A stretch of 64,000 nt of DNA, taken from the IMG/VR virus record IMGVR_UViG_2757320370_000007, positions 1-64,000 of that record; one strand, written 5' to 3'. Of this stretch, positions 14,834 through 42,249 are shown one piece after another (positions within the stretch are counted from its first letter, which is position 1; each line of letters begins with the position of its first letter). The stretch comes from a virus. The translations under genes and the position numbers were made by a program. Under the pieces are notes generated by a model. The model was given only the letters and a program-made list of their open reading frames with translations. It ran no database searches and was not told the DNA's origin.

Positions 14834-14936
14834 ATTTATCTCCTCCTATAAAATAAAAGTACAGGCTTTTTGTTTCTTTAACCTGTACTTAGTGTAACAC
14901 TTATTATGTTATTTGTATATATGTTTACTTTATTAA

Positions 14937-15653: not shown

Positions 15654-15682
15654 TTATTAACTCCCTTAAATTTAGTTTAGAT

Positions 15683-15708
15683 AAAAAGGCGATGGATTAT
15701 CCACCGCC
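15683..15708 (-). terminator. Intrinsic terminator
   Basis: GGCGGTGGA-TAA-TCCATCGCC hairpin followed by TTTTT on minus strand. Confidence 0.7.
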
Positions 15709-15719
15709 AGATATAATGC

Positions 15720-16265: not shown

Positions 16266-16302
16266 ATTTGTTATTTTTCTCCCTTTTTTATGTTTATTTT
16301 AA

Positions 16303-17280: not shown

Positions 17281-17299
17281 TAGATTAATCTCCTTTATA

Positions 17300-19751: not shown

Positions 19752-19756
19752 CTCCT

Positions 19757-20266: not shown

Positions 20267-22497
20267 GTGTGACGAACCCTATCACGTTCCTCAGCCCGTT
20301 TTGCTGAGTTGAAATTATTTACATTTCCTGTCAAATACCCTGTCACCCTACGAATTTTAGATATTTTTTCTTCACTGTTTTCACCACAGGCAGGACATTC
20401 TTTATTAATCACTCCGTCATAATAACAAGACATACACTTGTCAACTGGATGATTAATGCTAAAATATCCAATATTTTTACTCAGAGCATATTGCACAATA
20501 TTTTTAAATGCTTCTAGATTATTTCTAGCATTACCATCAAGTTCTACATAGGAAATGTGACCAGCATTTGTTAGTTTATGAAATGGTGCCTCTAGATCAA
20601 TCTTCTTATGAGCAGCAATTTCATAGTATACAGGAATATGAAAAGAGTTGGTAAGATATTCTCTATCTGTTACCCCTTCAATTTTTCCATACTGTTTCTG
20701 AAGCATTCTAACAAACTTTCCTGCTAATGATTCCGCTGGAGATGCAAAACAAGTTACATTCATATCATATTCATCTGACTTCTTATCACAATAATCACGA
20801 ATATATCCGATTAGTTCTTGACCAAAATACCAAACATTTTGATCTTCTCCGTGATGTTTTCCAAACAACGCTTTCAAGCATTCTGCTAATCCAACGAATC
20901 CAATGCTGACCGAACCCATGCGAAGCAAATCTTTAATTTTCTGATTTGGATGGAGTTTTTCTCCGTCAATCCATGATCCATTTTGCATCATAAAATCACT
21001 TGCTTTTGCTGGTTGATTACCTTGAATATCAAAACGATGAAGTAATCCATCAAGTGTAATATCAAGAATCTCATCTAGTTTGCTCCAGAAACCATTAACG
21101 TCAACTTCAGTTCTTCCATTTACTACTCCGTTTTCAATGCCAAGTTTAGTTAGATTAATTGAATTAAACGAAATATTTCCACGACCAGATTGATATACTT
21201 CACCGAATCGATTTGAAATAACTCGGGTTCTGCACCCCATCGTTGCTATTGAAGTATCTGGTTTAGTAGGATCATAATATTGAAGGTTAAAGTCCGCATC
21301 GACATTTACGAAGTTTGGAAAAAGTCTTTTACTGGAGCATTCAATTGCCTTTATAAAAATATCATAGTTTGGTTCGCCTAAATTTTGATTTACTCCTTGT
21401 TTACATTGAAAGATTAGCTGAGGGAAGATTGCTGTTTCTGAATGCCCAAGTCCATTCATAGATGCATTTAGAATAGCTTCAGATATCATTCTTCCTTCTG
21501 TACTAGTACACAATCCAAATGTAATACTTGTGAAAGGAACTTGACCGCCAGCACGTGAGGCCATTGTATTTAGATTATGAATCATACTCTCTGCTGCTTG
21601 TTTCGTTTCCAGTCTTGTTTCTTCTAATGCATATGTATAAGACTTAGGAAAAACTTTCAGAAGATCAGTATTATCAACGTTCAACTCTTCAATGTCCACT
21701 GTTACAAATGTTTCACCGAAATACATTTGACCTTTCTTGAAGTGCTTCACGAATGACTTTGTTACATATGGGGCCAAATCCCAATCGAATTTAGATGCTC
21801 CACAGCCTCCATACTGACTGTTTTGTTGGCACTGGAAGATAATAGCTACCTGAGCCATAGCTGTCATGATAGAGTTTGGAGTGCGTACAGAACCTTTATC
21901 ACTAACCTGGAATCCATCTGCCAATAATTTATCAAATGGAATGAAGATGCAGTTATGTGTTCCAACTGCATAATGATCTAGGTCATGAACATGAATATAT
22001 CCTTCATCTATAGCCTTAACTAATCGTTTTGGAAGCATTACGTTTCTCGCATACATCTTACTATACTCTGATCCAAAACGATTCATTTTTCCACTGTATG
22101 ATTCGCCATTTAGATTAGCGTTTTCTTTAGTGACTTCCTCATTATCTCCAGAAATAATCCCTTCCCCGATCTTAAACAATTCACTTTGTTTTAAGCGCTC
22201 TTCTGTTCTTTTTTGGCGGTATGTTATGTATTCTTTTGCAACATCTTTTCTGCTACTCATCATTAAGTCTTTCTCGATTAGGTCTTGAATCTGTTCCACT
22301 GAATATGTATTTTTACTCTTTTCTACTTGTTGGGTAACTTTCAAAGTGATTTTCTCTGCTAGTTCTTTATCAATTCCTACCTCAGTCATTCTCATTGCCT
22401 TAACAATTGCTTCTGTGATTTTATTTGGATTATATTCACTAAGGATTCCATCTCTTTTAGTAACCTGCGTATCTGCCATCCCCTGTCTATTATTCAA
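20263..22497 (-). CDS. nrdD: Class III ribonucleotide reductase with ATP cone
   Basis: VTKRDG ATP cone, MGCRT, YLTNSFH, CxxC/CxxC, RRVTGYL. Confidence 0.97.
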   Translation of the reverse strand: MNNRQGMADTQVTKRDGILSEYNPNKITEAIVKAMRMTEVGIDKELAEKITLKVTQQVEKSKNTYSVEQIQDLIEKDLMMSSRKDVAKEYITYRQKRTEERLKQSELFKIGEGIISGDNEEVTKENANLNGESYSGKMNRFGSEYSKMYARNVMLPKRLVKAIDEGYIHVHDLDHYAVGTHNCIFIPFDKLLADGFQVSDKGSVRTPNSIMTAMAQVAIIFQCQQNSQYGGCGASKFDWDLAPYVTKSFVKHFKKGQMYFGETFVTVDIEELNVDNTDLLKVFPKSYTYALEETRLETKQAAESMIHNLNTMASRAGGQVPFTSITFGLCTSTEGRMISEAILNASMNGLGHSETAIFPQLIFQCKQGVNQNLGEPNYDIFIKAIECSSKRLFPNFVNVDADFNLQYYDPTKPDTSIATMGCRTRVISNRFGEVYQSGRGNISFNSINLTKLGIENGVVNGRTEVDVNGFWSKLDEILDITLDGLLHRFDIQGNQPAKASDFMMQNGSWIDGEKLHPNQKIKDLLRMGSVSIGFVGLAECLKALFGKHHGEDQNVWYFGQELIGYIRDYCDKKSDEYDMNVTCFASPAESLAGKFVRMLQKQYGKIEGVTDREYLTNSFHIPVYYEIAAHKKIDLEAPFHKLTNAGHISYVELDGNARNNLEAFKNIVQYALSKNIGYFSINHPVDKCMSCYYDGVINKECPACGENSEEKISKIRRVTGYLTGNVNNFNSAKRAEERDRVRHT

Positions 22498-22500
22498 TCT

Positions 22501-22860
22501 CTATTCGCTTCTACTAATTCCTGCATTAGCCCAGAACACGCTCTGCTCAAGGTTCGTCATAGCCAATGATTTTTCACGACCATTTGGAACCATTTCTTCG
22601 ATTAGATAGGCGAGTTCTTTTGCCATATCTCTAATAGACTGATATTTTTCTGGCTGACCCTCTTTTGGAGAGTGGTAAGAAAAGTTATTTTCAATTGTCG
22701 GTCTGAAACGATTCTTCACAAAAAATGCTACCTCGTCGATGATCATGTGCTTAAAAATATAGGTATAATCATCATAAATGTATTCCATATTCCCGCTAAT
22801 TTCAGACTTTTCTACTTCTCCGATATACTTTCCTGTATATAATTCAACACACCTAATCAT
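22501..22860 (-). CDS. Acb2/Tad1-like hairpin domain protein (candidate signal sponge)
   Basis: C-terminal FSYH.P...Y..IR...P.GREKSLAMTNLEQSVFWANAGISR pattern, recognised from memory. Confidence 0.6.
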   Translation of the reverse strand: MIRCVELYTGKYIGEVEKSEISGNMEYIYDDYTYIFKHMIIDEVAFFVKNRFRPTIENNFSYHSPKEGQPEKYQSIRDMAKELAYLIEEMVPNGREKSLAMTNLEQSVFWANAGISRSE

Positions 22861-22902
22861 TTGATCTCTCCCTTTAGTTGATAAATTATTATTTTTACGA
22901 TA

Positions 22903-23379
22903 TTATTGCTCAATCCGAATCTTAAAAATATCGCCATTCTCATTATAGGAATGAATACTGAATACTGAATCAAATGTACTTGGTTCGCCTTCATTACAAG
23001 ATGTAAAGTCAATCGCTCCGTTTGTTTTGGCATTTGGAATATTAAAGTACACTTCCTTATCTTCCTTTGTATCATCAGTACGATAAAGTGTTTTAGCAAT
23101 GAGTTTGCATTTCTTTACTAGTTTTGGATTATAGGATATTTCTTTAAAATCCTTCTCATTATTTAATTCTTTTTCATAGTCGCTTCTATTATTTTTAACT
23201 TCAGCATGAGAAAATTCGAGAAGATCATAATTCAATAAGGCATCTTTAATGTACAGATATGGAGAGTATCCTTGAGATGTCTTGAGATAACTTTGTTTAA
23301 GACTATCTAAGTGAGCAACTTTATTTCCATTTTCGTCAAATACCAGCAGTTCAATTACTTCGCGTGTTCCATAATTCAT
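22903..23379 (-). CDS. Phage hypothetical protein
   Basis: AAGGAG RBS before MNYGTRE. Confidence 0.7.
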   Translation of the reverse strand: MNYGTREVIELLVFDENGNKVAHLDSLKQSYLKTSQGYSPYLYIKDALLNYDLLEFSHAEVKNNRSDYEKELNNEKDFKEISYNPKLVKKCKLIAKTLYRTDDTKEDKEVYFNIPNAKTNGAIDFTSCNEGEPSTFDSVFSIHSYNENGDIFKIRIEQ

Positions 23380-24121
23380 TTTATTTCTCCTTTTAATATG
23401 TATTTTCACTTTATAAAACTTATTTCTTACTTAAGCCGATCATACCAAACTCTCTGATCAAACTCTCTCCAAGCTTCCTTCCAAAACTTCTCATCCAGAG
23501 TATCCATTTTCTTAAATTCCTTCACTCCGATGAATTCCTTTAACTTCTTCTTCACATAAGCATCCTCATGCAAATTCACCTCATTCTCGCTTCCCATATC
23601 ATTCTTGAAACAATCATACAGCGCATCTCCCAAACTTATGTATGTTTTATTTGTCATTGTTTAATCTTTTTAACACCTCCCCATTCTCCAATTTCATATC
23701 CTTCGGGAAGCTCATCGATAATATCCCATCGACTTAATATATTCTCTTTCCTATCCCCTAAACTTTTACAGAAAACATTATTCTCGTCATACCAATGTAC
23801 TGATCCACCAAACATTGAATATTCTAGTGTTCCAAATCTTCCATCTTTCTTATGTTTCAGGATTTCCAATTAATCACCACCTTTTATACTCATATTTTAA
23901 TTATATGTTTACTTTATAAGTCTGTCAACAAGTTTCACAATCGATTCTTTGCTGCTCATAATCATCAGTAAAATATGGGCAACTCGTAGCACGGAATATG
24001 TATTTACCATTGTCTGAGACCGGAGTAATGTTGTCAAACATTCTGAAGTAATCATTGTACTGAAGCTTGTAGAGCATAGTTGGAACCCACTCATCATTAA
24101 CTAGTTTCTGGAATGTTCTCA

Positions 24122-24448
24122 TTAATTCTGAAATAAAAAATCGTTTTCTTCAGTTACAATTTCTTTAATATTCATCATAATTTTATCCGAGGTCATATTC
24201 ACATCAGGAACGAAAGTTAATGCTTCAGCTACAGAATAACTACCATCTCTGTTTGCTTGTTGTGTTGATACTTGAACCAAGCAACCATTGGGCAAATTGC
24301 ACACTTTTGTTGATTTCATCCAGCCTTGAGATTCAGAACTTGCCTTACAAAGTAGAGCGAAAGTATCTCCATCTCCAACAACTTTGATATCTGAAACTTT
24401 CTTTTTTGCATCTTCAATACTATCAACTGACAGGTTTTTATTTTCCAT
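24122..24448 (-). CDS. Conserved phage protein, possibly Acb4-like cyclic-nucleotide sponge
   Basis: GDGD.F.L.CKASS..QGWMKSTK, GCLVQVSTQQ, VAEALTFVP; family assignment from memory. Confidence 0.5.
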   Translation of the reverse strand: MENKNLSVDSIEDAKKKVSDIKVVGDGDTFALLCKASSESQGWMKSTKVCNLPNGCLVQVSTQQANRDGSYSVAEALTFVPDVNMTSDKIMMNIKEIVTEENDFLFQN

Positions 24449-24763
24449 TATTAATCATCCTTTTTATTTTATTTATGTTCTGATCAAAGATACATTTTAT
24501 TTACTTCACATTTTCCCAGTTCTAAAACGTCTTTCCATCATTTTTTTGATTCCATCACTATCTTCTAGTGTTTTCTTCACTTCTTCATTTGTCGACATAG
24601 TATCAATTAGGTCATTAAAGAATTCTAATTCTACTCCCTTAAAAATCTTGCCAGCCTTTGTTCGTAATTCGCTTTTTTTCATTATTGTCTCCTTCATACT
24701 CTTAATAAAATTTGACTTTCGTGTGCTTTTCAGTGTTAGAAATCCCTTATAAAACAAGGTTTT

Positions 24764-26735
24764 TTATTTCAATAGGTTCGCAATCTCATCGAGTTCAAGT
24801 TCAACTTTTTTATCATCGGAGAGTAACTTATCAAGTTTTGATTCCATTGCCTTTAGCTTCTGTTCTTCGTCTTTTCTATTCAGAATTTCAAATTTCAATT
24901 TCAAGTCTGTAATCCAATCCTGGACATGATAGCCGCTAACATTATATGATTCCAGCACTCCTAAATCTTTAGCAGACAGTACATAAGCGTTTAACTTAAT
25001 AAGAAGGTTAAGAATTTGTTCTTTCTGTAGTACTTGAATATTATGTCGTACTCCATCAATTTCAATTGAGCAGTTAGTAATTGGTGTAAACTTTTGAGAC
25101 TTACTTAGTTTCTCTTTCTTAACTTCAATTTGTTTCTTCAGTTCAAGAATCTTTTGATCATTTGGGTTTGCCATTATTCTTCATCTCCACTCTGAAATAG
25201 TTTTCCATTTACAAGATATTGATCTCTGTATCTAGGTTTGTATTGCTCCCACAAATCTTCAAGCGATCCGCTGAATATAGTCACATTTTCCATAGAATAT
25301 CCACCGTAATTCCATTTTGAAGTTACTTTTTTTCTAATTCTTAAGTTAAAAGAATTATTATCTTTTGCATCACCAATCACTTCAGCAGCACTATCTATAT
25401 CATTTCCGATATAAATACTTGTGCTGTAATGCCATGCATAATTTCCAATTTTAGTCCTGATCTTTTCACAGAATCTATCTTTCGTGTAATAGACGAATTC
25501 ATCTTTTGACTCATCTTGTGGAGAATAATATGATTTGTGCTCAAGTAAGTCGAACATATAAGCATATCGTTCAGTACATTCCTCAGACAAACAGCCTATA
25601 ACTCTATCGCCTAATGATTTAAGTTGAATAGCATACAAGTCCGGTTTTTTACGATAATTTGTGGTCTCACTAGCAAAGATATAATGTTTGCCTTTGTTAA
25701 CCACTTTGTATCTACTTTCTTCTCCCTGTTCCCCTCGAATCCACTTTCTATCCCAATAATCAAACCTCCCCATGTACACCAGTTCTTGATTATCTTTTGT
25801 TTTATATGTAGCTCCAATAATCAATTCTTTTGACTTAATATACTCTTTGTTGTGCAGAATCTTATTGAATGAACTTATTTCTTGATAGTCTGGAGATTCT
25901 ACAGGTATCAGCACTAACTCCTTCCCTTCCCAAGCATATACAAATTCTCCTTCTAGTCCCTTCCCTTTGATTGAGTTAGCATTTTCTAGGATGTAAAGTA
26001 AATTCTCAATAGTAATTTCAAACTCAAATCCTCTTGGGTCATATACTCTCACGTATGCCTGTCGATGATTCCAGTCAGACACATAGTCTCCAACCTTCTT
26101 ATTCAACACAAAGCCTGATGTTGGTTCATTCTCATAGTCTACCGGATCGATATTATTGTCTCTCCAGCTTTCCCAGGAAGCTTTCTTTCTCAATACTCCT
26201 TTGTGATCTTCATAAATTACGTAAGCCAATTTCTTGGTATATGTATTATCGCGATTCTGAAATCCAACTTTAATTTTAGTTGGAATGAATATATTTGTTT
26301 TCAATTTAGCACTCCTTTTAAGGATTCCATTTCATTTTGAATCTCAGCAATCTTCTTGTCATAATATTTCATTTTGGATTCTTTGGCAGATTCAAAATCT
26401 ATAATTATTGTTTTACATTGTTTCTTATAATGCTTTACACATTCTTTTTCATCGTAGAAGATATTGAGTGATGTTCCAGTTAGTGATCGATATCCAGTGT
26501 TATCATATGGAGCAATCACTTGTGCTAACGGTTTGCCATTCTTCCCAAATGGCCTAAAGTGAAATTCCGAATAATATACAGTTTTATTACTTGGCAATTC
26601 TTCATTGCTTACGACCATAACTTTGGTGGGCTTAACATGACGGATTGGTTGATTATCAATATCGTTAAATCGATAATCGCATATCCAGACTTCTTCTCCA
26701 ATCTTGACTACTTTGTTATACTCAGTGTGATTCAA
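24764..26735 (-). CDS. Three translationally coupled phage hypothetical genes (24764-25174, 25174-26304, 26301-26735)
   Basis: Overlapping stop/start codons; KVGFQNR...KLAYVIY, DPRGFEFEI motifs. Confidence 0.75.
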
Positions 26736-29426
26736 TTATAAGCCCTCCCAATTATTTATTCCTAACTTCTATTGATTTCTTCAATAGCCACACCACTTAG
26801 CCTCATAATATCCAACAACATATTTGGTATGTTTTCTCTTACACATTCCCATCCATACAGAGTAACACCATAATATGCACCTTCTACTTCAGCATCTTCA
26901 TCAAACATATCTCCTCGAAGTCGAATCATTCTTTCTTTAAAATTTTCTTGTCCAATGCAATTGTATTCTTTATCGTAAACATCATATATTTCATCGTCTT
27001 CTTCTTTGTATTTATATGATGTAATTATCTTACCTTCATTTCCAGCTACTGGATCAGATTTTAGCCATTCATACACTTCTTCATCTGATTTAGCTTGCAG
27101 ATAGGTTACTATTCCGGCTTTACTGTCTTTTGGAGCAAAATGCTCAAACATAATTTTATATAGATTCATTTTTAATACGCCCTTCCTTCATATTAACGAT
27201 CTTAATTATTTCATTATATTTATTGCTATCAAAATGAATACTGTTCCTAATAAATGAGCCATATTCTTTTTGGTTATATAATTCCTTAAGTTCTTTAGTA
27301 CACTTTTTAAAGTTTGAAAGCCCTGCAAACAACACTAGAACTGGGAAAAGAATAGTTGTTAGAGCAATGGCAATATTATTTGTGAAGCTGTGAAGAATAA
27401 CCCCTTGATCACTATAATAATATTCATATTTATCATTCCACTTGATTTGACGATATTTGAATAATGAATTATGCTGCTCCTTTGTTAATTGGAATTTTAT
27501 GTACCCATATTCGGTTGGACATTTATATTTATAGTTAGACACTTAGTACCTCCATTTATGTCTTGCTTTCTGTTCCTCTTGTCCCAATCTTTTAAAATGG
27601 CATTCCAACATTCATCTGATCCCTTTAATAATAGATAGTCTGGAATTTTGTACGTATCTTGTACCCCATATTGACCAAGTTCAATAATATAATGTCCATT
27701 TGTTATCTCCCCCTCCACCCATTTTGCATATTCAATGTTTTTCTCTTTATGCGACAGCTTAGTCCATTGATCATATAACTCTTGTGCGGTGTCAATATAG
27801 TTCAATCTTAGTTTTGAGTACATAACTTTGATCCTCCTTATTATAAAATACGCCTTTTACCGACTTCCTCGTTGATCTACAAGCTCTTTAATTAGCAAAT
27901 CATGCAACTCTCTACTAATACTCTTCCATTCCATGTCTTTATCTGTTCTAATGCCAATGCTAAACGAGTCTGTTACTGTATCTGTACAAATTCTTACCGA
28001 TCCATTATTTACTTTAAGAATCGTCGTCCCTCTTTGTCCTGATAGCACACTACCCCACTCCTTTCCTTCTCTATGAAATCTCTCTTTTACGCAAACTCTA
28101 AATAATTTATTGCCTCAATAACATCTATGTTCATCTAAGCACCAACCTCATGTTGAATCGACTCAATATCTGAAATCAGTTTCGTTGTTTCTTCGATATA
28201 TTCTGGATACTCATTTTTAAGATAATCTACAGCAATCCATTCGCTCAAATCAAACCTTGCTTTTTCAAGCAGATTTAGTATTTCTTTCATCTGATCAACT
28301 ATACCCATCAATCATTCTCCTAAGCCCAATATTCAACTGCATCTTCAAAATCAATCCAGAATGTTTCATTCATCTCCGTATCAGTCTCAACATCATAAAA
28401 TTGAATCAACATTTCATTCCGATGATCTTCTTTAACGACAAAGCCTTCAGGGTGCAATTTCCAGCCGTTAGGAAAGGGTGCTCCCACCTATTGAGTTTCT
28501 GAAATACCTCATTTTCCGTTGAGGCAAGCCTACAAACAAATCCAGTGTAATCTTTTGTATCATTGTATCCTTCAATTCTTTCAGCCATTAATACTCATCA
28601 TCTCCCGACTCTTCGATTTCATCAATTTTTGTTCTCAACAATTCAATGTCATCATCTAATTCCGCAACATTTGCCATCAATAGATTTATTTGAAGTTGTA
28701 ACCTTGTTCTCGTTTCGATTTTGGAGCCTAATTCATCAATCAATAAGTCATAATCATTCATGCCGCCCATTCCTTTCAGTATCAAATATATCTTTCATCA
28801 GTATTAATACCTTATCACAGGTCTATCTTTCCAATCTCTTTTCCTATCAAGAACATATTTACCTCTATACTTGTCAGACAACTTAAGATTTTTCTGGGCT
28901 TCAAGCATGTCAATTTTTTCTGAAATGTCTCTGCGTTGTTTATATAGCTTATCTAGTTGTTCATATATCTGTTCCAATGTTGGATTTAGGTTGATCATTT
29001 CATACACCCTTTATATATTATTGTTTGATTGCTTCTAGCAAACAATCAAGCGCTTCAGCAATATATCCATCCTCTTTATATTCAACGCTTAGTTGTTGAT
29101 ACACACCTTCAATCTGATTATAAGCTCGATACAAAATATCTTTTTGCTCCTTGTTAATGTTCTTGGTTTTGATCACTGTTCATTCCTCCTTTTATTTGAG
29201 ATAAAAGCATTATTTCATTAGTCACACGACTAATCTATAAATTCATAATGCCCATGCTGGACGACATCAGGACCATCAGCCCAAACTTGGATACCTATAA
29301 ATGAGTATATATTTTCATCTCTTACGAGGAATTGTTCCCCAACTTCGTACCAATTGTAATCTTCTCTTTTAATCACTCTAATATTTTTCATTTTATATTT
29401 TCCTTTCTTATACATTATTAATCTGA

Positions 29427-29765
29427 TTATAACTTTATATTTGACCCTTTCTCACATTCTTTAAGATATGCTTCAGCCCAACAACTTTTACAGAATGATT
29501 TTCCTTCTAGTGATTCTGGAAAAGGAAACACCATGCCTCTTTTATATATATTTCTTGTTTTTGTTCCACATTTATCGCATTCATGATAAACAATCTTATC
29601 TGCACTGTAACTAGGTTCAAATTCAACAGTCACTTCAAACTCTTCGTCACATTTCTGACATTCCCAATCCAACTTATTGTCGTCTGATAAACCATCAGTT
29701 AAGGCATGAGACATGTCATTTTCGTATCCACAATAGGGGCAATCCACTGTATCGTAAATATTCAA
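29427..29765 (-). CDS. Zn-finger protein (four CxxC)
   Basis: CPYC, CQKC, CDKC, CKSC. Confidence 0.65.
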   Translation of the reverse strand: MNIYDTVDCPYCGYENDMSHALTDGLSDDNKLDWECQKCDEEFEVTVEFEPSYSADKIVYHECDKCGTKTRNIYKRGMVFPFPESLEGKSFCKSCWAEAYLKECEKGSNIKL

Positions 29766-31040
29766 TTCCTCCTTTCTAAATCAAACTTGTATTCTATCAG
29801 GTTTTTATTTTGCTAATGCAGCAAGTTCTTCCCATCGTTTTCTCACATTTGGACTAGTCATTCCATCATCATTTTCTAGTTTCTCTTTCGCTACTTTCCC
29901 CACCTCAGGTTTCCAATCTTCTATCCATTCACGCACCTGATTAATTAAATCATACTGGGGATAAAGAAGTTTGCTGCCATCAACGATTCCAAAAGGTCCT
30001 TCAATTCCTTTTGTTTTTCTTATAAATTCCATCCCAGACCAACCGCATTGAAATCCAGTCATACCTTGCTTTGAAGCAAAATAATTGAACATTGCAACCG
30101 TTACATTGGCAAGTGATTCAGCAATTGTATTGTAGTCATGACTTTGATTTTCTTGCTCATGTAAATAACTAATTAATTCTTCTTCCGTTGTAGGCCAAGC
30201 ACCATACTTTCCATCTTTCAAATAAATCATCCTTTTTTATATGTATTTTTAGTTACTGATGAAACAGTTCTTTTACGATGGAATGTACCTCTTAAAGCCC
30301 AATAGAATCAATGCTTTCTCAAATCAAATTCCCTCAAAGTATCGGCAATCTCATCACTTGAAGCAAAACTCGGCTTTTTGTGATTAACCTTACCACTCAA
30401 CCTTTTAATGTATTCTACATCTCTGTCTGATCCAACTTCTGGACCAACGTAAATTGTTTTGTCTTTCATATTTCCACCCACTCAACCTAATATGTATAAC
30501 AGCCCTTGCGATACTGTTTTCCTTTGTACTTATATTTAGCAATAAAAGTTTTTACGAGTACTGTTCCGTTGGCAATCTTTTCTAAAACCAATGTTCCATA
30601 CTTTGTCATCCAACGAATCTTGCCCGTAAAGTTTAAACCGGAAACCTCTCTTGCGAGAGATCTCCAATTAACTCCACTTTCGATGCAGCGTTGTAAAGAG
30701 TGCTTACTAAACTTAATTTGTGAGGTATTCATAAGTTTCACCGTTTCTTAGCAGCTTTCAAATCTCGTTGCTTTTTATTTTTGGTGAGAGGGCTGCCTCC
30801 CTTTGCCATAGATTTGTCAGGTAGAATATAACCGAAAATCAATCCTTCTTTTTTACAATGTACTTTGGCTTCATTCTCGGCTCCGAGTCGATCTGTAGAT
30901 ACAAAGTCCTTGATTACCTTACTAGTTCCACTTTGAGTTGTTGCGATTCCGTAGAATTTAGTCATATGTATTTGATCTCCCTTGGTCTCTTTATTATAGT
31001 TTATATTATTTATTTTGTATATATGTTTATTTTATAAATA

Positions 31041-32700
31041 TTAAATCTTTTCTCTGTAATCCTCAATAAATAACTGCATTGTCTTTGTGATTTTAAACTT
31101 TGGCTTATATTGCTTCCAATAATTCATATTCAGTGTTCCAATCGCTTCAATCTCAGTGAATACTGGAACGCTGTCGAAGTACTCTGAATCAGTCTTAAAC
31201 TTCATAAGTTGCAGAGTATCACAGTCAATTTTAACGGTGTTGAGGGACTTGCCCATTAGTTTCTTGTCTGAGATGAATAATCCCTTAATGAGAAATTTGC
31301 CCTCTTTAAAATGATTTCCTGTGACACGATAGAACTCAGACAGGTAATTAATTAGTTTTTCATCAATCTGGTCAACATCAAATTCTAAATCATAATACAT
31401 GGAATTGTCTGCTTCAAAATTATCTAACTTCTCATTCAGCTCTTGACGCAATAATTCGAGATTTGTTTTGTAGATCTGTAGTCCTCCTGCTGCGGGATGG
31501 CCTCCAGTGTAAAATACATTGTCACAGCTATCAAGTAAATCTAACATTGAGAAATCTTCTAGTCCCCGAAAACTTCCTGCGTATGTATCTTCATTGTCAC
31601 CTTCGCCAAGTACGATTGCTGGCCTATTAAATGATTTGGACAATTTCTGTCCCACTAATCCATTCATCCCTTTACCAAGCGTTGGATCAAATACAATTAC
31701 GACTTTATCATTCTCGTCGACAAATGGCTTCAACGCTCTTAACGCTTCTGTCTGGACTTCCTTGCGTCTTTCATTTGCCTTGACAAGTTCTTTTGCTAGT
31801 CCTTTAATCTCAGGACTATCCGTATCGCACATCAAAAAGTCAATTGCTAACTTAATATTATCAAATCTTGTAGCAGCCGTTACAGCAGGGCTTACACCGT
31901 ACAGAAAATCAGTTGCAGATAGATTATTGAGGTCAAAATTCATAGCCTCAAATAACGTTCTAAGTCCTGCATGACGTAGGCTTTTAAGAGACAGCTTGGC
32001 ATAATATCTGTTTTCTAGTTCCATCATCGACATCATATCAGCCATTAGTGAGAATCCTGGCAAGTCATCGAGTTTATTTGCATAGTATGTATCCATGTAA
32101 TCGTCTATTACTTGGCAAACTTTAAAAACCAAGAGTCCACCACAAGCATTTTTATTGGGATACTCGCAACCATTTTGCTGCGGATTCACCAAAATCGCAT
32201 ATGGATTTTCAACAGTGACACTGTGGTGATCAATAATTAAACAGTCAATCCCTTTAGATGTTAGCAATTTCATAGTCTCTACATCATTTGATGAGCTGTC
32301 TACTGCAATCAAAAGTTTAGTTTGTTTGGGTATCTGCTCAATCAATCCCTCAATTGAATGACCTTCAGATCTTTCATTACAGACATAATATACTTCGTCA
32401 GTGAAATTCAATAAATACTTATACATAGTCACTAACGAAGTTACTCCATCGTAATCCTAACTAATCGGGGTCGCCAGTAATCGTAATAGGCTCACGGTTG
32501 CGAATAGCCAGAATGATTCGGCTTGCCAATGCATCAATATTTTTAAGTAAATATGAATCACAAATCACATTAGAGAGTGGATTCAGAAATTGATCAATAT
32601 TAGTGATTCCATTTAGTTTTGCAAGTTTAGAATATGTATTATCATATGAATCAAACGGTGTAACAGGTTTGCGTTGCTTCCATTTCAATGGTTCGATCAC
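31041..32700 (-). CDS. recJ: RecJ/YorK-like DHH ssDNA exonuclease, interrupted by 10 nt at 32454-32463
   Basis: GDPD*...YDG motif I, VDSSS, IDHH, ADMM, GSFR, GGHPAAGG; joined product 549 aa. Confidence 0.88.
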
Positions 32701-34407
32701 TCCTTAATACAAATTTTATCTAATTGTTATTTTGAATTTTTCAGGCATTGTAATATTGTGGTAGTTGTTCATTGCAGCCATGAATTTATACGTAAGCTTC
32801 TTGCTTTCGCGTCCAGTGAATTTGTCGATGATTCTGATATTTACCTTTCTGTTCATATCTATCACTCTCCAGATCAAATATTTAATTACTTAGTACCTAT
32901 ACTTCACTCTTATTGTAAATTCAGCGTTTTTCATTCGCTCAATCTGACTAATGGCGTCAGTAATTTTTTCTTTTATCTTTTTTGATCTACTAAAAAAATA
33001 GATTAATTTATATTTTCTAATCCTCTTTTGTAATAATGACTCAGAAGACCAAATATCAATTTCACTCATTGTTTACCACCTCCATGATTTGATCAAAGAT
33101 AAGTTTTACTTAATTATCTATATTGGACGACCTTCCACATCTTCCGCACTCTTCGCATTGACTAAGCGATTCTTCGTCCAGACATTGAGAACAAGCGTGT
33201 TTAAACCATTCTTCATCTCCCGGTCTAACAAGGAAATCATCTCCGCACTTAGCACAATATAATTTTTCAAACATCTTATGTTTATCTCCTCTCTACGTCC
33301 AATCAGGATTTAAATAATGAGCCAGTTCACTCACATATTTATCGTTTATGTATTCCGGTGTCAATCCTTCCATCAAACTTACTACGACTTCATATAGTGC
33401 GGTTTTGTAATCTGAATTATCAGCAAAATAAATTGCGCTTATTGCAGCATTTAGTGCTTCTCTAGCACTACCACTTAGATCATTGTCGATGAAGTTTTTC
33501 ATTAACTCATCCATTAGCTTCCCATTCTTTCATTGGCTTCATCGATTATTTCGTCAAAAATGCTCTGAAGATTTTTGGCTTGCTGATTCCATGAACGAAT
33601 ACCTTCTGGAGTAATTTCAATATCGCTATTCTGAAAGGTGGATGATAGATGTTGGATATCAATTTGAAACGCTCTAAACCTGTTGAAGAAATTCTGATCT
33701 GTATTGATTTTTGCCATTTCATTTTTCCCCCTTAAAATTTGATCAAAGTATGTTTTCATCGCCTATTCTTGGATGGCATCGCAGAACACTTTCCATTCTG
33801 TCTTCTTATTTCTTTGAACCTTTTTGATCCCCTTGTAATTTTGGCAAGCTCTTACTCCTCCAGGGAATTCACTAGAATAGATACAAGTACATTCCTCTCT
33901 CTTTTCTCCTTTGTTTTTACCAAACAACGATTCCACTTCTCTGCTACCATATTCTCTTTGAACTGGACACTCTGATTTCAATACATGAACCTCTTCAGTT
34001 CCACCACCAATTGCACAGCAGCTTGAGAAAATTTCTTTCTTCATTATTTCACCTCATCATTTGTTTAGAGCTTTAGTATTCGTCATTGTATTTAACAAAT
34101 TCATCTTCAGCACCTTCAAATGCTCTCTCGTATACACTGTCAAGCATTGTCACGATAAAATTGTCACCTGATTCAGTGTCTGCCTCATCGAGCAGATTTT
34201 CAATTAACCACTTAGCAAACTCTTTCCGTTTACCACGTCGAATTTTTGCTTCGTTCCAATTATTTGGGCTTGCATTAAAACCTCTTACAAGATTGCTGAT
34301 AGGCATCTCAATAATTACTTTTTCATTTGTTGATCTTACTGTAAAACCTGTAATGTTCTTATCTTCAATTTTCATTAATGAACTCACCCTTCTTCTGGGA
34401 TATATAT

Positions 34408-34734
34408 TTACATTTTTTTGTTTCCATGTTTATACGGTCTGCTTAGGTTGTACTTCATTTTTTCCTCGATTGCTGATTCTAAATCAATCTTATAATAGCC
34501 ACAAGCATCAAAAATCCTAATAATTACATCAGCAAACTCGATGGGAATGCCACAAGGTTTTTCATCTACATAAAATACATTATCGTATTCTTTACCATTT
34601 CGATGATCCTCAATTGCTTCAGAAAGCTCACTGTGCATAAGTGAAATTAGTTCACCAAAACTCTTAGGATTTTCCCACCAGCCATGATCAATAGCATTCT
34701 GATGAGCATCACTCACCAAATTATTAATATTCAT
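34408..34734 (-). CDS. MazG-like nucleotide pyrophosphohydrolase
   Basis: LMHSELSEAIE, IEFADVIIRIFD, KMKYNLSRPYKHG. Confidence 0.8.
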   Translation of the reverse strand: MNINNLVSDAHQNAIDHGWWENPKSFGELISLMHSELSEAIEDHRNGKEYDNVFYVDEKPCGIPIEFADVIIRIFDACGYYKIDLESAIEEKMKYNLSRPYKHGNKKM

Positions 34735-34796
34735 TCCATCAACTCTTTCATATGTATTTTCAACTCATGAAACTATTCTTTCATCAACACTCTCTA

Positions 34797-35342
34797 CTAA
34801 CCAACATAATTAGCAAACTCATTGCCTCTATCGCAAAACTCTTTAACCATCACCCTCACCAATCCAAATGACATACCTGAGTGACCTTGGCGCTCAATTT
34901 CTTTTTTTGCATCTTCGAGGCTACCATCTTCATTTAAAATTCTGACAATGTCCAAGCAGCATCCCAATTCCATGCCATGGTATAGATCGTTAAGTCTAAC
35001 AGGGACAATCTTATCCCAATAATCCCATTTATCTTGGTCTAGCACTTGTCTACCTCTTACTTTCCACTCTCCAATAAGAGAAGGGATACTTTCTTTGAAT
35101 TCAGCTTCTCTCTTCTCAGAATCCTCTCTCCATTTTCGTTGCGATTCGTCAAATTCATCTTTCGTCTTACCGATGATTTCTTTATATGCTCCGTCCATCG
35201 TAACAGTGTCTGAATATAGGGTGGTTCCATTAAATTCACCACATGCTAAGATGCCTTTATCCTTATATTCTAATAATTTGTGAACAGCACTCTCAATTGT
35301 GTTTTCCCAAGAAAATTCGATCTTCAAATATTGATTTTCCAA
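34797..35342 (-). CDS. Phage hypothetical protein
   Basis: GAGGAGG RBS; RLNDLYHGMEL, QGHSGMS. Confidence 0.7.
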   Translation of the reverse strand: MENQYLKIEFSWENTIESAVHKLLEYKDKGILACGEFNGTTLYSDTVTMDGAYKEIIGKTKDEFDESQRKWREDSEKREAEFKESIPSLIGEWKVRGRQVLDQDKWDYWDKIVPVRLNDLYHGMELGCCLDIVRILNEDGSLEDAKKEIERQGHSGMSFGLVRVMVKEFCDRGNEFANYVG

Positions 35343-36765
35343 AATATTGTCCTCCTCAAGTAGTTAGTTATGGATCGAATTGCTATTTAATCTGCAAACT
35401 TAAAACAGGAATGGTTCCCCTAACAGACAGCTCAATTTCTCCCGTTTCAAATGCCTGGAGATACTTATCAATCTGCTCTTGATCATCAAATTTGTAGTCA
35501 AACCCAATCCATCCAAAAATCATGTTGTCTACACCGCAATGAAACTTTCCTCCAACCATTTGATTGTACCGTATGCCACCCCAAGGCTTCTTTTCACACA
35601 CTGAGTACCGCAGTTTACCAAAATTGTTGCGGATCATCACGAAGTAGTTATCCGATACACCCATTACTCGCATCGGCTTCTTCCAATCGTTAACCCTAAT
35701 GAGATTACCGATACTTACAGTATCCAGAATTTCTTTTGTTATGTTCTCATGTATCAAGCTCATCAACTCCTTTCACGTTATTTAGAATCTCTACATTACG
35801 CATTTTTTTATTTTTCTAACTTTTTTACAAGCCTTTTTAGTTGAAACTCTTTGACAAACGTTTTGATTTTTTCATATAGAAGTCTGATTTTCAAGCATTG
35901 TGTTTTTAGTTTTTCGTAGTAAAGTCTCAACATAATAGCAACCCTCACTCCTATGTGCAGTACACGTCTACTTGTAACCCCATAAAACTTTTATTTCACT
36001 TTGAACTGACTTTAATTCTAATTGTTCCTTTTTCGTAATCTGAGTCAGTATGAACCTTATACTTTTCATTCGTTTGTGTGTGTTTTATAATCTCTTTCCA
36101 AATCGCTTCATCAAGCTCTTCAATGAATTTTTCTTTACTCACAATAATCCCCCCCTTCCTTATGAAATTCTAATTTGACTAAGTCTTATAGATTTAAACT
36201 GACCTTCCATTGTCTACTCGTGTTAAAGTTTCAATCAAAAGCAAACGCTCGTCTTCATCAATTTCTCTTGATACAAAAGTAATCCCATTATCGTCTACCA
36301 GTTCAACGTAAACACCATCTTTTGCATTTCCATAAAAATCAACTCTGCGATTGTCTCCCATTGGTATTTGCATATTCAGCCACCTCTTCCATTCTCCCTT
36401 AATGTGTATTTCGGAGCCAACTCTCACTGACTCCGCGTTATCAGTCCTTATTATAATTTTGTTTATGTATTTATATGTTTACTTGTAAAAGGCTGTGTCG
36501 ATAACTCCCCATCCACTAAACTCAATACCGTCTTCATCCATAATGTATATGTCACCGTTCGAAAAAATATCGTTTCCATACCTTCGACCAATCTCATATA
36601 GTTCACCTTCGTTGAAATTACATCCTCTTAGCTTCTTATATTGATTAGACACTATCAATATGTGAGTGGCACCATCCATATCCTCCGTTTCAGAAAGTTT
36701 CTTTCCTTCTTTCGATATTGCACATGCTTTAGACAATACGATCATTCCCTTCTCATGTCCTGTTC

Positions 36766-36796
36766 TTATTATATTCTCTTAGTTATTAATTTGCAA
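36766..36796 (-). promoter_or_regulatory. SigA-type promoter TTGCAA-N17-TATAAT with upstream AAAGTAAACA box
   Basis: Direct motif match. Confidence 0.65.
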
Positions 36797-36872
36797 CTAA
36801 TATTTATATGTTTACTTTATAAATTTAGTTTGTGAGATATTTATTAATGATAATATCTTGGTCAAAAAACCC

Positions 36873-37199
36873 TTATTTATTCAAGGTTTTTTCTTTCTCT
36901 AAAATATCAATTGCGGCCATAATTATAGCAAATGGCATTGTCTCTTGTACTTCAACTTTTGATTCCTTATTGTTTTTACAATTCCAGAAGTTTGCCAAAT
37001 ACCAGACTCTACCCGACATCTCAATTCGAGGCCACCAATCACGACTAATCATCTCATCCACAACAAGTCTCATTCCTTCCCAAGTTGATGAATATTGTGG
37101 AATGTGACCAAATGAACCATCTATATTAAGACAAGTTGTGAGCGATATGTAGTTAATTAAATTGGCAAATTTTCCGTCTAACTCTTTTCCTGGTTCCAT
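36873..37199 (-). CDS. BC1872-like / phage ABA-sandwich family protein
   Basis: PGKELD, PQYSSTWEGMRLVV, PFAIIMAA. Confidence 0.6.
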   Translation of the reverse strand: MEPGKELDGKFANLINYISLTTCLNIDGSFGHIPQYSSTWEGMRLVVDEMISRDWWPRIEMSGRVWYLANFWNCKNNKESKVEVQETMPFAIIMAAIDILEKEKTLNK

Positions 37200-37890
37200 A
37201 ATCTATGCCTCCTTTTTTCTTGAGAACAACGTCTTAAAAGAAAACTCTTCATCATAATTTAGACATCTGTCATCGCTTCCTGGATCATATCTACAACGCA
37301 ATGTAGCAGTCAATGTTCCATTGTTGTTTCTGCAACCCTTACAGGCGAAAGATTCCAGTATTTTTATTTCAGCCAGATTCAATAAATCTAGTCCGACTTC
37401 TTTTATCTTCATATATTCACTTAAGTTGACAAGGCGCTTCTGTAAACTTTCCCCTTCGATAATATTGAATCTGTGGTATCTTGTTGGTTCATGACAGACA
37501 ATAATTTCTTTATTATCAATGTGTTTTTGTAATTCTTCAATGCTGTCAACTTGATAAATGACATATGTATCTTGTGTCCTGCCACCAAATGCATGTTCTC
37601 CATAAGCATTAATGATTATCATTATTTCACTCCCTTTTAATGTTTTGATAAAACCTATATTTTACAATGTTTTTAGTTCTAAAAAACCCTTATAAATCAA
37701 CGTTTTCTCGATCTCGTTTTGATAATTCATCCATCATTTCGTCCAAGATCTCATCTGTGAGTCCATTCCTGGATTTCCAGTCGTCAAAAAATAACTTAAG
37801 AGTGGGATGTGATAAGTCCCACCATGAAAGATTGTTAAATGCATCAAGTTGCTCCTCGGTATATCTCTTATTTTCCATTACATACCCTCA

Positions 37891-38967
37891 CTAATTATGT
37901 ATTTTGAATTTGTACTCGCTATATAGCCTCTTAAACACCACTTCCCCTAAATCAGTAGGACTATCTTTATTGCTAAACATTCCATCCCTATCCCAAAGAG
38001 CATATACATTTCTGGTCTTACCAAACTTAGCCCCCTGCTTTTTTACAGCTTCAATTGATTTATCTTTATCTAAAGCTATAATTATATCGATCTCAATTCC
38101 AAGACCTTTAATCATACTAACTTGCCAGTCACTTAAATCATCCCCACTTATAGCTACACAATTCCGAAAACCATATTGACTACTCAGCCATGTACTCTTT
38201 TCACCTTCGTATATCAGCACCTCCTTATTCTCAATAATATAAAATAAAGCACGATGCCAATTATACAATTCAACCATCTTGTTAAAGTTAATAAGATAGA
38301 GGAACTTATAAATATCTCGTTCCTCGTAATCATCAAAAATTGTTCTACCTTTGATAGACACAATATCCCCGTAACTATTGTGAATAGGATAAATGATTCT
38401 TTGACTTTTAATATCGTATCCAACTTGGAATTCTATTTGTGTCAAATAATTAATACCTTCGTTAATGTATAGTAAATGTGGAACCATGATGAATTGACTC
38501 AAAATATCATCGCCATATATTTGATTCTCTATGTGGTCAAGATTCCGTTTCTTTTTTCTCTGTTTTTTGACCTCTCTAAGCCATTTAAGATGATCTGATG
38601 TGGGCAATGGGGTATACGATTCATTTAAGAACTCTGTATACCCCAGTTTTTCACATATCCACCGCTTAGACTTAGGTAAATTGCTTCGTCTTTCTTCTTC
38701 AAGAAATTTATCAAATACTATGTATGAGACCAATCCATATATATCAATATCTGATTCTCCAAGCGTTCTGATTCTGCTAGACATGCTCTCATTTAGGTAG
38801 ACCTGAACAGACCTTTTATTTGGAGACTCAAACTTATTGGGAAGTTGTGCCTCGTAGCGATTATTTTTCTTCTCTACATGTTCACAATCCATCAGTTCAA
38901 GTAATTCTCCAACTTTTTCATCTGTTAATATTTTCTCTTTGATCAACTTTAAATCATTATTGCTCAT
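37891..38967 (-). CDS. DNA primase (TOPRIM, YorJ-like)
   Basis: RIIYPIH, SIKGR, LYNW, YEGEKS, ALDKD, KDSPTD; next to the helicase. Confidence 0.88.
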   Translation of the reverse strand: MSNNDLKLIKEKILTDEKVGELLELMDCEHVEKKNNRYEAQLPNKFESPNKRSVQVYLNESMSSRIRTLGESDIDIYGLVSYIVFDKFLEEERRSNLPKSKRWICEKLGYTEFLNESYTPLPTSDHLKWLREVKKQRKKKRNLDHIENQIYGDDILSQFIMVPHLLYINEGINYLTQIEFQVGYDIKSQRIIYPIHNSYGDIVSIKGRTIFDDYEERDIYKFLYLINFNKMVELYNWHRALFYIIENKEVLIYEGEKSTWLSSQYGFRNCVAISGDDLSDWQVSMIKGLGIEIDIIIALDKDKSIEAVKKQGAKFGKTRNVYALWDRDGMFSNKDSPTDLGEVVFKRLYSEYKFKIHN

Positions 38968-39002
38968 TTAAGCTCCCCCATAGGAGTATTTACTGCTATG
39001 TA

Positions 39003-40508
39003 TTAAAACATCGAATTAGATTTCTTGCCCATTTGTGCGTATGCGACTTCTTTGAAACTGTTGATACTGTAGTCCACTTCATAAATAATTTGCTCTGATA
39101 GATCTCCAGAACGATTCTTAGAGATGAAGATTATCATATAAGTTTTTTCTGGATCTAATTCGTATTTTTCTTTCTCCCACACCCCATTGAGAGCATTCTT
39201 GACCCAGTTATATGCAGCGAGAGCTTCTTTTTTCCCTGGCATCTCATCTGCAAAAAGTAATCTTCCCATAAGTATCACGGATGCAACCTCAGCAATCTCT
39301 AGGGACTTCCCTATGGCACTCAGATCAAGATAGCGATACTCTTTACCAATCTTCAACTGAACCGTTGCAAGCAGTCCCACGTTGTTTGCTTCGGGTTTAA
39401 TGCAGTCAAAAATATTTTGAGCCGCATTGCTAAATGATTCCCACCTAGCGGATTCTTGAGCAGAGGCGCTAGGTTTAAAAGTATCAAGCAAGGCATAATT
39501 GTAATTTAATGGTTTCATCATTGTAATGCGGCTAATAACATCCTCGACTCTATACTTCTTTAAATCATAAAACTTGATATGATTTTTCGGAAATTTTTGA
39601 ATCCATTTTTTCGCTGCATCTAATTTATCAAGTGTTTTTTGTTCAAAACTTCCCTCAATCAACTTCTCACGATTAATCGGCTTATGTAAAATTTTAGATG
39701 AAACTGTTGCCAAAACAAGGTTTCTTGTTTTCCAGATATTCTCTTCATTTACGAACATCATTCCTTTTTGTTCGTTTTCGTAGAGCGATAGCACGAATTT
39801 TTCCATACTTATAGATGACTTTCCAACTCCAGAACTCAAAATAAGATACATAAGTTCGCCTTTGCGCCATCCCTTAATCTTCTTACTCAGTCTTGGCGAA
39901 TCGTGCAATGGAATCCCCATTGCTTCACCTTGATTCATTTTGTCTATTGCAATATCAAGGTCATCTCCAAGGTCATATTCAACAACTTCTCCGCAGTTAA
40001 TGTGAGAAAATATTGAACTAGTCTTAAACTGAAAAAATGATTGCATTTGTTTCAGAGTCATTCTTGTTAATTTTCCAATTAAGTCTTTGTTTGTTGTATC
40101 AATTAAGCTTTCGCTTTGAAATTTTCTCAAACTTTCATACTTTTGTATTTCTGAAAAATGGTAATCATCATTACCTTTGTCTTTCTCGCACTCTTCTAAT
40201 AACTCATCTATCAAATTATAACCACCATATTCATTGTAACAATCGAAATATGACTTTCGATTTACTTCTTTGGGTCGTGAAGTTAAAAACGAATATACTG
40301 TCTTATCATCAAACTTTCTAATACTATTCGCATACATCTCATTCCCTATGAAGTAGAAATACCACCAAATAGGTTCAGTGAATGTATCCTCTGATATCTC
40401 ATGATTCCTATATTTTTCATATAGTGACGGCGTACTCCAGAGATAGCCAATAAATAGAGACTCGTGTATTTTTGATGGTGCTACAAATTCATCTATGTAA
40501 TTAATAAT
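39003..40508 (-). CDS. dnaB: DnaB-like replicative helicase (YorI-like), likely ATT start at 40508
   Basis: Walker A SSGVGKS, LLDTFK, TVQL, KNRSG; frame open 57 codons upstream of the ATG to ATT ATT behind AGGGGG. Confidence 0.88.
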   Translation of the reverse strand: MINYIDEFVAPSKIHESLFIGYLWSTPSLYEKYRNHEISEDTFTEPIWWYFYFIGNEMYANSIRKFDDKTVYSFLTSRPKEVNRKSYFDCYNEYGGYNLIDELLEECEKDKGNDDYHFSEIQKYESLRKFQSESLIDTTNKDLIGKLTRMTLKQMQSFFQFKTSSIFSHINCGEVVEYDLGDDLDIAIDKMNQGEAMGIPLHDSPRLSKKIKGWRKGELMYLILSSGVGKSSISMEKFVLSLYENEQKGMMFVNEENIWKTRNLVLATVSSKILHKPINREKLIEGSFEQKTLDKLDAAKKWIQKFPKNHIKFYDLKKYRVEDVISRITMMKPLNYNYALLDTFKPSASAQESARWESFSNAAQNIFDCIKPEANNVGLLATVQLKIGKEYRYLDLSAIGKSLEIAEVASVILMGRLLFADEMPGKKEALAAYNWVKNALNGVWEKEKYELDPEKTYMIIFISKNRSGDLSEQIIYEVDYSINSFKEVAYAQMGKKSNSMF

Positions 40509-40518
40509 TTAATGCCCC

Positions 40519-41088
40519 CTATAGAAAACTTGATATATCCATCTCATCTATCTTATTATGTTTATTCTTTAAAATTTCATTGGATATATTCTTATCTTCA
40601 CTACTAATTTTAGTTCTCTCAAACTGTTCAGTATGCTGCTCACGTCTCTTCTTTCTCGCAAAAGCCTCATTCAACTTATCGATCATGATAGAAACTCCAT
40701 AATTGATTGCTCTCGTATCTCTAGAACCATCCAGTTTGTTGGCAATGCACCATCGAATACTATCTTCTGCCAGCAAATAAGCCTCCAACATCAGTTCAAA
40801 CGTTGGCCCCGTATTCCACTTTCTAACTCTCTGCCCATCCTTAAATTCGAACCCAGCTCTTAAATCCTTCAACCGTGTAATATTTCCCGTTGGTAAAACT
40901 ATGATATCGTGTAGTTTGATTATGTATTGGTATAGATCATCCCATTGTTGATTCTCGATTCGAGTCGCTTCCTTGTCACGTTTCCATCGTTCGTGACAAT
41001 ATTCAACATGGTAATATCGTTTGTCTTCTTGGATCATATTTTCTTTGTGTTCACGCTGACTACAAATAGGACATTTTACTAGTGCCAA
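40519..41088 (-). CDS. YorH-like Zn-binding replication protein (possible helicase loader/initiator)
   Basis: CPIC...H..C; position directly upstream of the helicase. Confidence 0.65.
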   Translation of the reverse strand: MALVKCPICSQREHKENMIQEDKRYYHVEYCHERWKRDKEATRIENQQWDDLYQYIIKLHDIIVLPTGNITRLKDLRAGFEFKDGQRVRKWNTGPTFELMLEAYLLAEDSIRWCIANKLDGSRDTRAINYGVSIMIDKLNEAFARKKRREQHTEQFERTKISSEDKNISNEILKNKHNKIDEMDISSFL

Positions 41089-41888
41089 ATTCTCACCTCC
41101 TTAAGATTTGATATTATGTATCACACTTCAAAGCACTCATAACCCAAGCCGTTTAAATATTGAAATTGTTCGGCAACAACTTTTCCATCCTCGTCTCTGA
41201 GACCAACAACGCTGTCATAATTAAGATCAATATAGATACCGTGTTCGTCTGACAGTTTGTCTAATTCTTTTATAAATTTTGAAATCCTATTTAAATCCAT
41301 TAAAATTCCTCCAATTTTATATTTATACTTCAATTTTGACGACACGATGAAATACCTCTTTCGTGAGGAAATATGGTCTAAAAAAGCCTTATTCTATAAG
41401 GGTTTTTAACTATGTATTTTTAAAATCCTCAATAATACTCTTCTTTGTTCTTTTTGAACTCAACTCCTAGAAATTCGCATACTTCCTTCTTAAAATTATT
41501 ATCAGAATAATCATCTTCGCCAAATTCACCATTTACGAGTCGATGTTCCAGTTCTTCCAACATGACCTCTTCTGGACTCCATTGGTCTTCTAATCCGTAG
41601 CAAGAGCAATGTGACCCATTTACTTCATATAGTTTCCCATCTTTTAAGAATAGAACCCAAGCAGCACCAGAATAATTGTCGTTTCCATACGAGGCAAATA
41701 GTACGGCTTCCTCTTTGTGATTGCTTAGTGCATGATCTTGTGTTTCCCATGACTCAAAACTACCAAACACTTCTTCCATATTGCTCCAATCATGTAGGAA
41801 TATTGGTTGTTGATTGATAATTTCTTCGAATGTTTTCATTTGATTTCTCCTCTTATTATGTATTTTTACTTTTACATTGAACCTATTG

Positions 41889-42249
41889 TTAAAACTCAAA
41901 ATAACTACTAGAATTGCTTCCGTATTTCCAAGATTCAAACATCTCGTCTTCATCATTTAAATATGTAATTTCCATCGATGGTGTTGCCCAACTGCTGCTA
42001 GAACAAACGTCTACATTATCCTGTTTAATGTATCCATTCTTCATGTTCCATACTTCACCGGATGTATACGCCCAGTCTTCTGCAAAGGCCAACTACGACA
42101 GATTTAATATTTTCTTTATTTTTTTCGATATAATCTTTAACTGTTTCCCAGTCAACCTCTTTATACTTCTCGATATTTGAATGGTCTCTGCCCATACCTT
42201 GAAACATACCTTCTGAAAACCCGAGATATCCCTTTTCGATCTTTTCCAT
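41889..42249 (-). pseudogene. Frameshifted hypothetical gene (extra T at about 42085)
   Basis: GGC CTT T GCA GAA GAC TGG joins VVVGL to AEDWAYTSG; the second ORF lacks an RBS. Confidence 0.65.

Follow-up and report, generated by a model that had tools for sequence, protein, structure and literature searches.

To our knowledge, programmed translational bypassing is proven only in T4 gene 60 and its relatives, in the mitochondrial byps of yeast and, in part, in phage Hau3. Among gene 60 homologues, an Asp take-off codon, a UAG and landing on GAU or GAC all occur, and the T4 bypass insert protects against the endonuclease MobA and persists after MobA has been lost (10.1101/2022.08.31.505936). 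The 10-nt bypass that Streptomyces phage Hau3 has in its terminase gene was seen by mass spectrometry in E. coli (PMC10732093). Stop codons flanked by matched codons have also been hopped in synthetic constructs (Weiss et al. 1987, reviewed in PMC5009743), and the 2016 review listed no natural in-frame stop-hop (PMC5009743).

The interruption of a phage recJ gene described here is real and conserved and is probably a natural short bypass. As in T4 gene 60 (10.1101/2022.08.31.505936; PMC7026636), a take-off codon is followed by UAG and a matched landing codon, the insert lies within a metal-binding Asp motif, a homing endonuclease gene stands upstream and is often lost, and candidate hairpins occur 5' and 3', at positions in recJ that match the 5' stem-loop of T4 and its forward barrier. 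Two alleles (L002 and L020) even begin UAGCC..GGCUAU like T4, possibly by chance. Unlike the T4-type gap of 20-50 nt, the recJ gap measures 8-10 nt; the gene is recJ and not a topoisomerase, its neighbour encodes a LAGLIDADG enzyme and not the HNH enzyme MobA, and the host belongs to the Bacillota. Moreover, recJ is without the NTE/CTE tails, is not divided into two proteins, and has neither the conserved tetraloop take-off stem-loop nor room for the mini-SD that lies 5-7 nt before the landing site in the T4 type. The recJ gap would thus work alike yet falls outside the MobA family, with no sequence homology shown between the two.

Like recJ, the Hau3 terminase has an enzyme motif whose frame is broken by a 10-nt insert between matched codons, and a +1 stop inside the Hau3 gap, of a kind present in six recJ alleles, doubled recoding (PMC10732093). 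Hau3 uses the rare sense codon UUA, for which developmental control was proposed, whereas recJ has an invariant UAG and no evident control signal. The synthetic stop-hops, as the review summarizes them (Weiss et al. 1987, reviewed in PMC5009743), share the matched codons around a stop, and their exact layout recurs as CCT-TAG-CCT in distant phages (L118-L122); they are artificial and low-level, in contrast to the recJ sites, which are natural and under selection. With the mitochondrial byps of Magnusiomyces, recJ would share short inserts corrected at translation and a tolerance of imperfect landing codons, whereas the byps are 27-55 nt long, number 81 copies and use an unassigned sense codon, recJ having one site per prophage among the 110-150 genes compared. 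The protein resembles SPbeta YorK/RecJ of the DHH family in its family, its motifs and its location near primase and helicase genes; in the YorK-type genes of the cultured phages inspected, motif I is uninterrupted, the Lactococcus 949-group being split elsewhere. In Lactococcus phage AM1 and its group, recJ is split near residue 109 by ~340 nt, and not in motif I (L073:798-2811). Recoding in phage recJ was not described in any paper reached by a literature search of incomplete coverage.

An interrupted RecJ motif in a Paenibacillaceae prophage

The window, i.e., the whole stretch of 64,000 nucleotides analysed (1..64000), belongs to a low-GC prophage of ~180 kb (at ~4.02-4.20 Mb of the genome) that carries SPbeta-type replication genes and resides in a complete 8.5-Mb Paenibacillaceae chromosome, the relatives of which are Paenibacillus; a search of cultured-phage DNA gave no near relative. 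On the minus strand, positions 32475-32445 read GGC GAC CCC GAT / TAG TTAG GAT / TAC GAT GGA, with Gly-Asp-Pro-Asp before the gap and Tyr-Asp-Gly after it, which is exactly the GAT-TAG-TTAG-GAT break of the DHH motif I described in the first-pass annotation. ORF1 (32461..32700, minus strand; 79 aa with GTG 32700 as the start, 75 aa with TTG 32688) contains the first two Asp of this motif and ends in G-D-P-D followed by TAG, and the 18 database proteins of truncated ORF1 type all terminate in GDPD. The take-off codon GAT (Asp79, 32464..32466), by alignment the equivalent of a RecJ motif I metal ligand (role: PMC4846377), is followed by the A-site stop TAG (32461..32463), the spacer TTAG (32457..32460) and the landing codon GAT (32454..32456), all on the minus strand, as is ORF2 (31041..32453), which runs from the resume codon TAC (Tyr80) through Asp81-Gly82 to the DHH, DHHA1 and OB domains. 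The gap sits between the 2nd and 3rd Asp of motif I; in Deinococcus RecJ, the three motif I Asp bind both catalytic metals, and mutants are almost inactive (PMC4846377).

ORF2 lies in the +1 frame with respect to ORF1, and the spacer includes a second TAG, immediately 5' of the second GAT, that closes the +1 frame, so that an earlier +1 shift cannot enter ORF2. Skipping 10 nt yields a stop-free product of 549 aa in which all DHH/RecJ motifs are present (motifs I-IV, DHHA1 and the OB fold), motif I being complete only after the skip; Pfam matches DHH, DHHA1 and RecJ_OB on ORF2. Translation and Pfam confirm the predicted 549-aa skip product with its other motifs intact, and the earlier statement that no other lesion is present is borne out.

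Elsewhere in the prophage, no second interrupted gene was detected among the ORFs common with two related prophages, in a comparison that inserts of >1.5 kb and short ORFs escape, and an Rfam search of the window matched no family. An insert of 1.3 kb (3128-4416, minus strand) breaks the dnaE gene (4414-5634 and 1100-3127) after CCC GAT, within the catalytic P-D-L-D motif; the insert begins with TGA, has a terminal G and group I P/Q/R/S-like words recognized by eye, and contains a 314-aa GIY-YIG-like ORF (3400-4344); searched against Rfam and Pfam, this insert gave no match, and it is probably a group I intron. A free-standing GIY-YIG protein of 199 aa is encoded at 7975-8574 (minus strand), and two ribonucleotide reductase genes, nrdE of class Ib and nrdD of class III (17300-19396 and 20263-22497), are uninterrupted. 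The counterpart of a 138-aa ORF of the G109 prophage consists of two pieces at 56983-57835, 433 nt apart with a small ORF between them, which looks like gene shuffling. The prophage tRNAs are tRNA-Met(CAT) and tRNA-Leu(TAA) only (G000:C1:4099478-4099639, outside the window).

Gap alleles in relatives and selection on the joined protein

Protein, pattern and truncated-protein searches gathered 15 gap loci, compared with 19 intact loci read at the site; truncated-protein searches favour broken alleles, and the resulting counts are not frequencies. The 15 loci display ten gap sequences, 10 nt long in nine loci, 9 nt in five and 8 nt in one, so all three frames are represented. The identical 10-nt gap of the window is found in the independent contigs L001, L038 and L112, with related gaps in eleven further loci. 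Every gap opens with TAG directly after GAT, both triplets being the same in 15/15 loci, and closes with GAT (11 loci), GAC (2 loci) or GGC (2 loci, L002 and L020), i.e., with GAT/GAC in 13/15. The 2-4 nt between TAG and this last triplet are free to vary, and no earlier GAY triplet occurs inside the gap in any of the 15 loci. In each allele, the same protein is restored only when the last triplet substitutes for the take-off codon. The host has tRNA-Asp with the single anticodon GUC; one tRNA reads both the codon of take-off and that of landing in 13/15 loci, GGC being near-cognate in the other two, and the GAT/GAC swap leaves decoding to this one tRNA-Asp yet breaks the DNA repeat. The alignment of homologues, proposed earlier as a check, thus reveals conserved Asp-stop-gap-Asp breaks with a spacer variable in both sequence and length.

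Selection acts on both sides of the gap. Eight gap genes, with 70-92% protein identity and synonymous sites near saturation (pS ~0.7), have a median dN/dS of 0.05 before the gap and 0.065 after it, not above that of intact genes, and the L002/L020 pair with its GGC triplet also gives a dN/dS of 0.05. In the same eight genes, the TAG is constant while just 6/88 four-fold sites are invariant; raised synonymous conservation around the gap was not found. Codon 80 alternates between Tyr and Phe, likewise in intact genes, codons 81-87 show synonymous change apart from one Val-to-Ile, and Asp81-Gly82 is retained with synonymous changes in 15/15 gap loci.

In present annotations, gap-containing genes figure as pairs of fragments or as pseudogenes. 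A recent inactivating insertion or an assembly error had been listed as alternatives in the first-pass annotation, and the host does carry its own intact recJ, in favour of inactivation. However, the gap alleles come from complete isolate genomes (G109, P. polymyxa, GCA_031757035.1) as well as from metagenomes, which excludes an assembly error, and the same gap persists in independent isolates and metagenomes despite the divergence and synonymous saturation given above, with no other lesion, a dN/dS of ~0.06 and no other shared prophage gene broken. Selection and recurrence rule out both alternatives, to which we assign practically no probability.

The same data bear on a split gene, in which ORF1 would terminate and ORF2 re-initiate a few codons on, the pieces then assembling or the large piece working without motif I. 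The window offers GTG and ATG codons 8 and 10 codons past the gap with GGAG upstream, and there are precedents for phage enzymes split next to homing endonucleases. Yet no downstream start is conserved, the first candidates lying 7, 8, 10, 21 or 47 codons past the gap, so that codons 81-87 must be reached from ORF1; in the window, neither a start codon nor an open frame leads into them. Asp81-Gly82 would go untranslated in a split gene despite being kept in every gap locus, and the added terminal extensions seen in the split T4 topoisomerase are missing. Splitting of the gene is, in our opinion, very improbable.

A probable translational bypass, its rivals and candidate RNA elements

The distribution of the alleles argues for a short programmed translational bypass spread by a homing cassette, which we consider likely from the comparison of sequences. 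The bypass suggested in the first-pass annotation is supported by the conserved matched-codon gaps of the homologues, from which we infer the hop. We propose that the ribosome would pause, its peptidyl-tRNA-Asp paired to GAU and its A site occupied by a UAG awaiting release factor 1. Some ribosomes would terminate and yield a 79-aa fragment; in others, the peptidyl-tRNA would leave GAU, slide 10 nt and re-pair on the second GAU, and translation would resume at UAC, resulting in full-length RecJ whose D-x-D-x-D-G motif is intact. A single bypass mechanism would account for all three frames, for the alternation of GAU with GAC and for the Pro case presented below. Several observations count against it: the GGC landing in L002 and L020 requires a middle-position G-U pair; in these two alleles, a perfect GAY stands two codons later, and landing on it would remove Tyr-Asp; read-through could serve instead in the six in-frame cases, namely CCT-TAG-CCT and the five 9-nt gaps; and unstimulated stop-hops are low-level.

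Recoding could instead be allele-specific, with UAG read-through of the in-frame gaps, read-through combined with a frameshift for the 8- and 10-nt gaps, and 2-3 extra residues in motif I. This would accommodate the five in-frame gaps, the GGC alleles, which suit re-pairing poorly, and the CCC-TGA +1 sites in the same motif of distant phages. Nevertheless, a separate mechanism would be required for each gap length, the added residues would break the D-x-D-x-D spacing of the three metal ligands, the matched last triplet would go unexplained, and read-through would have to proceed without a suppressor tRNA, none being present in the host genome. We regard such recoding as unlikely.

Quite unlikely, in our view, is the removal of the gap from RNA or DNA before translation, whether as a micro-intron, by a polymerase jump between short repeats or by excision upon induction, the gap being maybe the stump of a group I intron. 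GATTA is indeed repeated around the gap of the window, a cut after GA and before the last base would restore the Asp codon in every allele, GGC included, and the prophage dnaE has its group I-like intron after the same CCC-GAT. On the other hand, 8-10 nt is too small for a ribozyme core and Rfam gave no match; the gap ends are variable (G or A) with no fixed terminal G; the repeat is down to 2 nt in GAC alleles, and a TA repeat is missing in TTT alleles; and the gap is present in all 15 assemblies. We know of no bacterial machinery for removing such 8-10-nt gaps. A TA-flanked transposon footprint was also considered and dropped, as TTT alleles lose the TA.

Returning to the translational bypass, possible stimulators were sought by a whole-gene folding scan against synonymous shuffles in six gap and six intact genes. 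In the gap genes, codons 85-100 rank first among 264 segments of 16 codons (-8.3 kcal/mol versus a mean of -0.3, sd 1.3), and codons 67-75 rank first among 535 segments of 8 codons (-4.0 versus a mean of -0.1, sd 0.7), while the six intact genes give no signal at either hairpin position in the same scan. In the window, the candidate 5' stem-loop (32479..32499, minus strand) ends 12 nt before the take-off codon with 7/8 pairs formed, and the candidate 3' stem-loop (32394..32439, minus strand) begins 14 nt past the resume codon with 11/11 pairs. The 3' helix retains 11/11 pairs in seven gap genes against 5-8/11 in sixteen intact genes, and double third-position changes, compensatory and synonymous, are found in L006, L013 and L049. 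The hairpin registers were defined on mutually related sequences; seven held-out alleles gave a mean z of -1.5 (3') and -1.9 (5') versus ~0 in intact genes. The two hairpins flank the gap in one clade, that of the window, and are the gene's most stable conserved ones; L103 and L106 are without the 3' helix. The hairpin behind the ribosome may push and the one ahead may block overshoot, and both look like tuning that came later and is not essential.

No conserved take-off hairpin was found, natural spacers being no stabler than random ones (median rank 0.33), and an upstream Shine-Dalgarno was either not conserved or not specific. A hairpin reaching from the UAG as far as the resume codon seemed compensatory across the first 8 alleles but was rejected: it is impossible in TTT alleles and folds in L002/L020 only. 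Arg69 (32494-32496) is present in 15/15 gap alleles, with His or Asn instead in 7 intact GDPD alleles; it could serve as a nascent-peptide signal, belong to the 5' hairpin or be there through linkage.

Homing endonucleases and recurrent breaks in motif I

A gene encoding a LAGLIDADG protein of ~300 residues overlaps the recJ start in 4/15 gap loci (L038, L049, L102 and L103), and no such neighbour was seen in the 19 intact loci read or in 12 further open-frame loci. The gap relatives L100, L101 and L110 adjoin other genes. The junction that holds a 303-aa LAGLIDADG endonuclease gene in L038 is empty in the window, where this junction and a 53-aa ORF lie upstream of recJ (32701..32877, minus strand), and no LAGLIDADG endonuclease was found anywhere in the window's genome. 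L038 corresponds to the intact L004 arrangement plus an insert of 0.9 kb, its recJ being diverged in the 5' part as far as ~codon 96, beyond which the two are near-identical. On the downstream-protein tree, the gap requires five changes, and each of the four endonuclease loci occupies a separate place with a different downstream background, whereas the upstream DNA tree requires 1-2 changes (both trees exclude the long or partial rows L043, L052 and L113, together with L111 and L112 downstream and L021 and L023 upstream). This contrast would fit a cassette spread of the gap, although general mosaicism complicates it: recJ genes are mosaic throughout, and the cassette borders are therefore clear only in L038.

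Judging from these neighbourhoods, a LAGLIDADG homing-endonuclease cassette probably brought the gap in, and in the lineage of the window the endonuclease has probably since been lost and the gap kept. By analogy with T4, the gap may act as a protein-silent mark that spoils the endonuclease target and so provides immunity. The regulatory switch put forward in the first-pass annotation is unsupported, the neighbours pointing instead to a by-product of a homing-endonuclease cassette.

More distant recJ breaks were reached by following the endonuclease neighbour. In the distant phages L118-L122, motif I reads Asp-Thr-Asp-Pro, TAG, CCT, Asp-Gly, which is the CCT-TAG-CCT layout of a six-base hop (L118:2210-2230); this allele was seen in 10 contigs, with the DNA read in five, and an HNH-NUMOD3 endonuclease gene lies upstream of recJ in L118. 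The matched triplet thus tracks the codon before the stop (GAT or CCT), which is the best argument for tRNA re-pairing; for the CCT-TAG-CCT match, a duplication origin or in-frame read-through would also fit. In L109, L113 and L114-L117, a one-base insert results in CCC-TGA within motif I, at two different motif positions (L109:3630-3650; L113:3645-3665), and eight truncated proteins end in D-x-D-P, the DNA having been read for two. CCC-TGA is a known +1 shift site in Listeria phages (PMC5009743), and the recJ sites are candidate programmed +1 frameshifts. They stand mostly beside endonuclease genes, with related LAGLIDADG genes upstream in L109 and L113 and a GIY-YIG-like ORF in L115-L116.

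It is quite possible, although we would stop a little short of calling it probable, that recJ motif I is a recurrent, natural and efficient minimal recoding site across Bacillota phages, with 6-10-nt hops of tRNA-Asp or tRNA-Pro as well as +1 shifts at CCC-UGA, and that homing endonucleases of unrelated kinds (LAGLIDADG, HNH and GIY-YIG-like) each installed them independently as immunity marks silent at the protein level, flanking hairpins tuning them later. The recJ site constitutes a natural allelic series, with gaps of 8, 9 and 10 nt, cognate and near-cognate landing codons, and alleles with and without hairpins, that is found in cultured Paenibacillus strains, which makes both the minimal requirements for bypass and the proposed immunity role directly testable. 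If this recurrent recoding is true, stop-hopping would join introns and inteins as a general third way in which selfish nucleases alter a catalytic codon.
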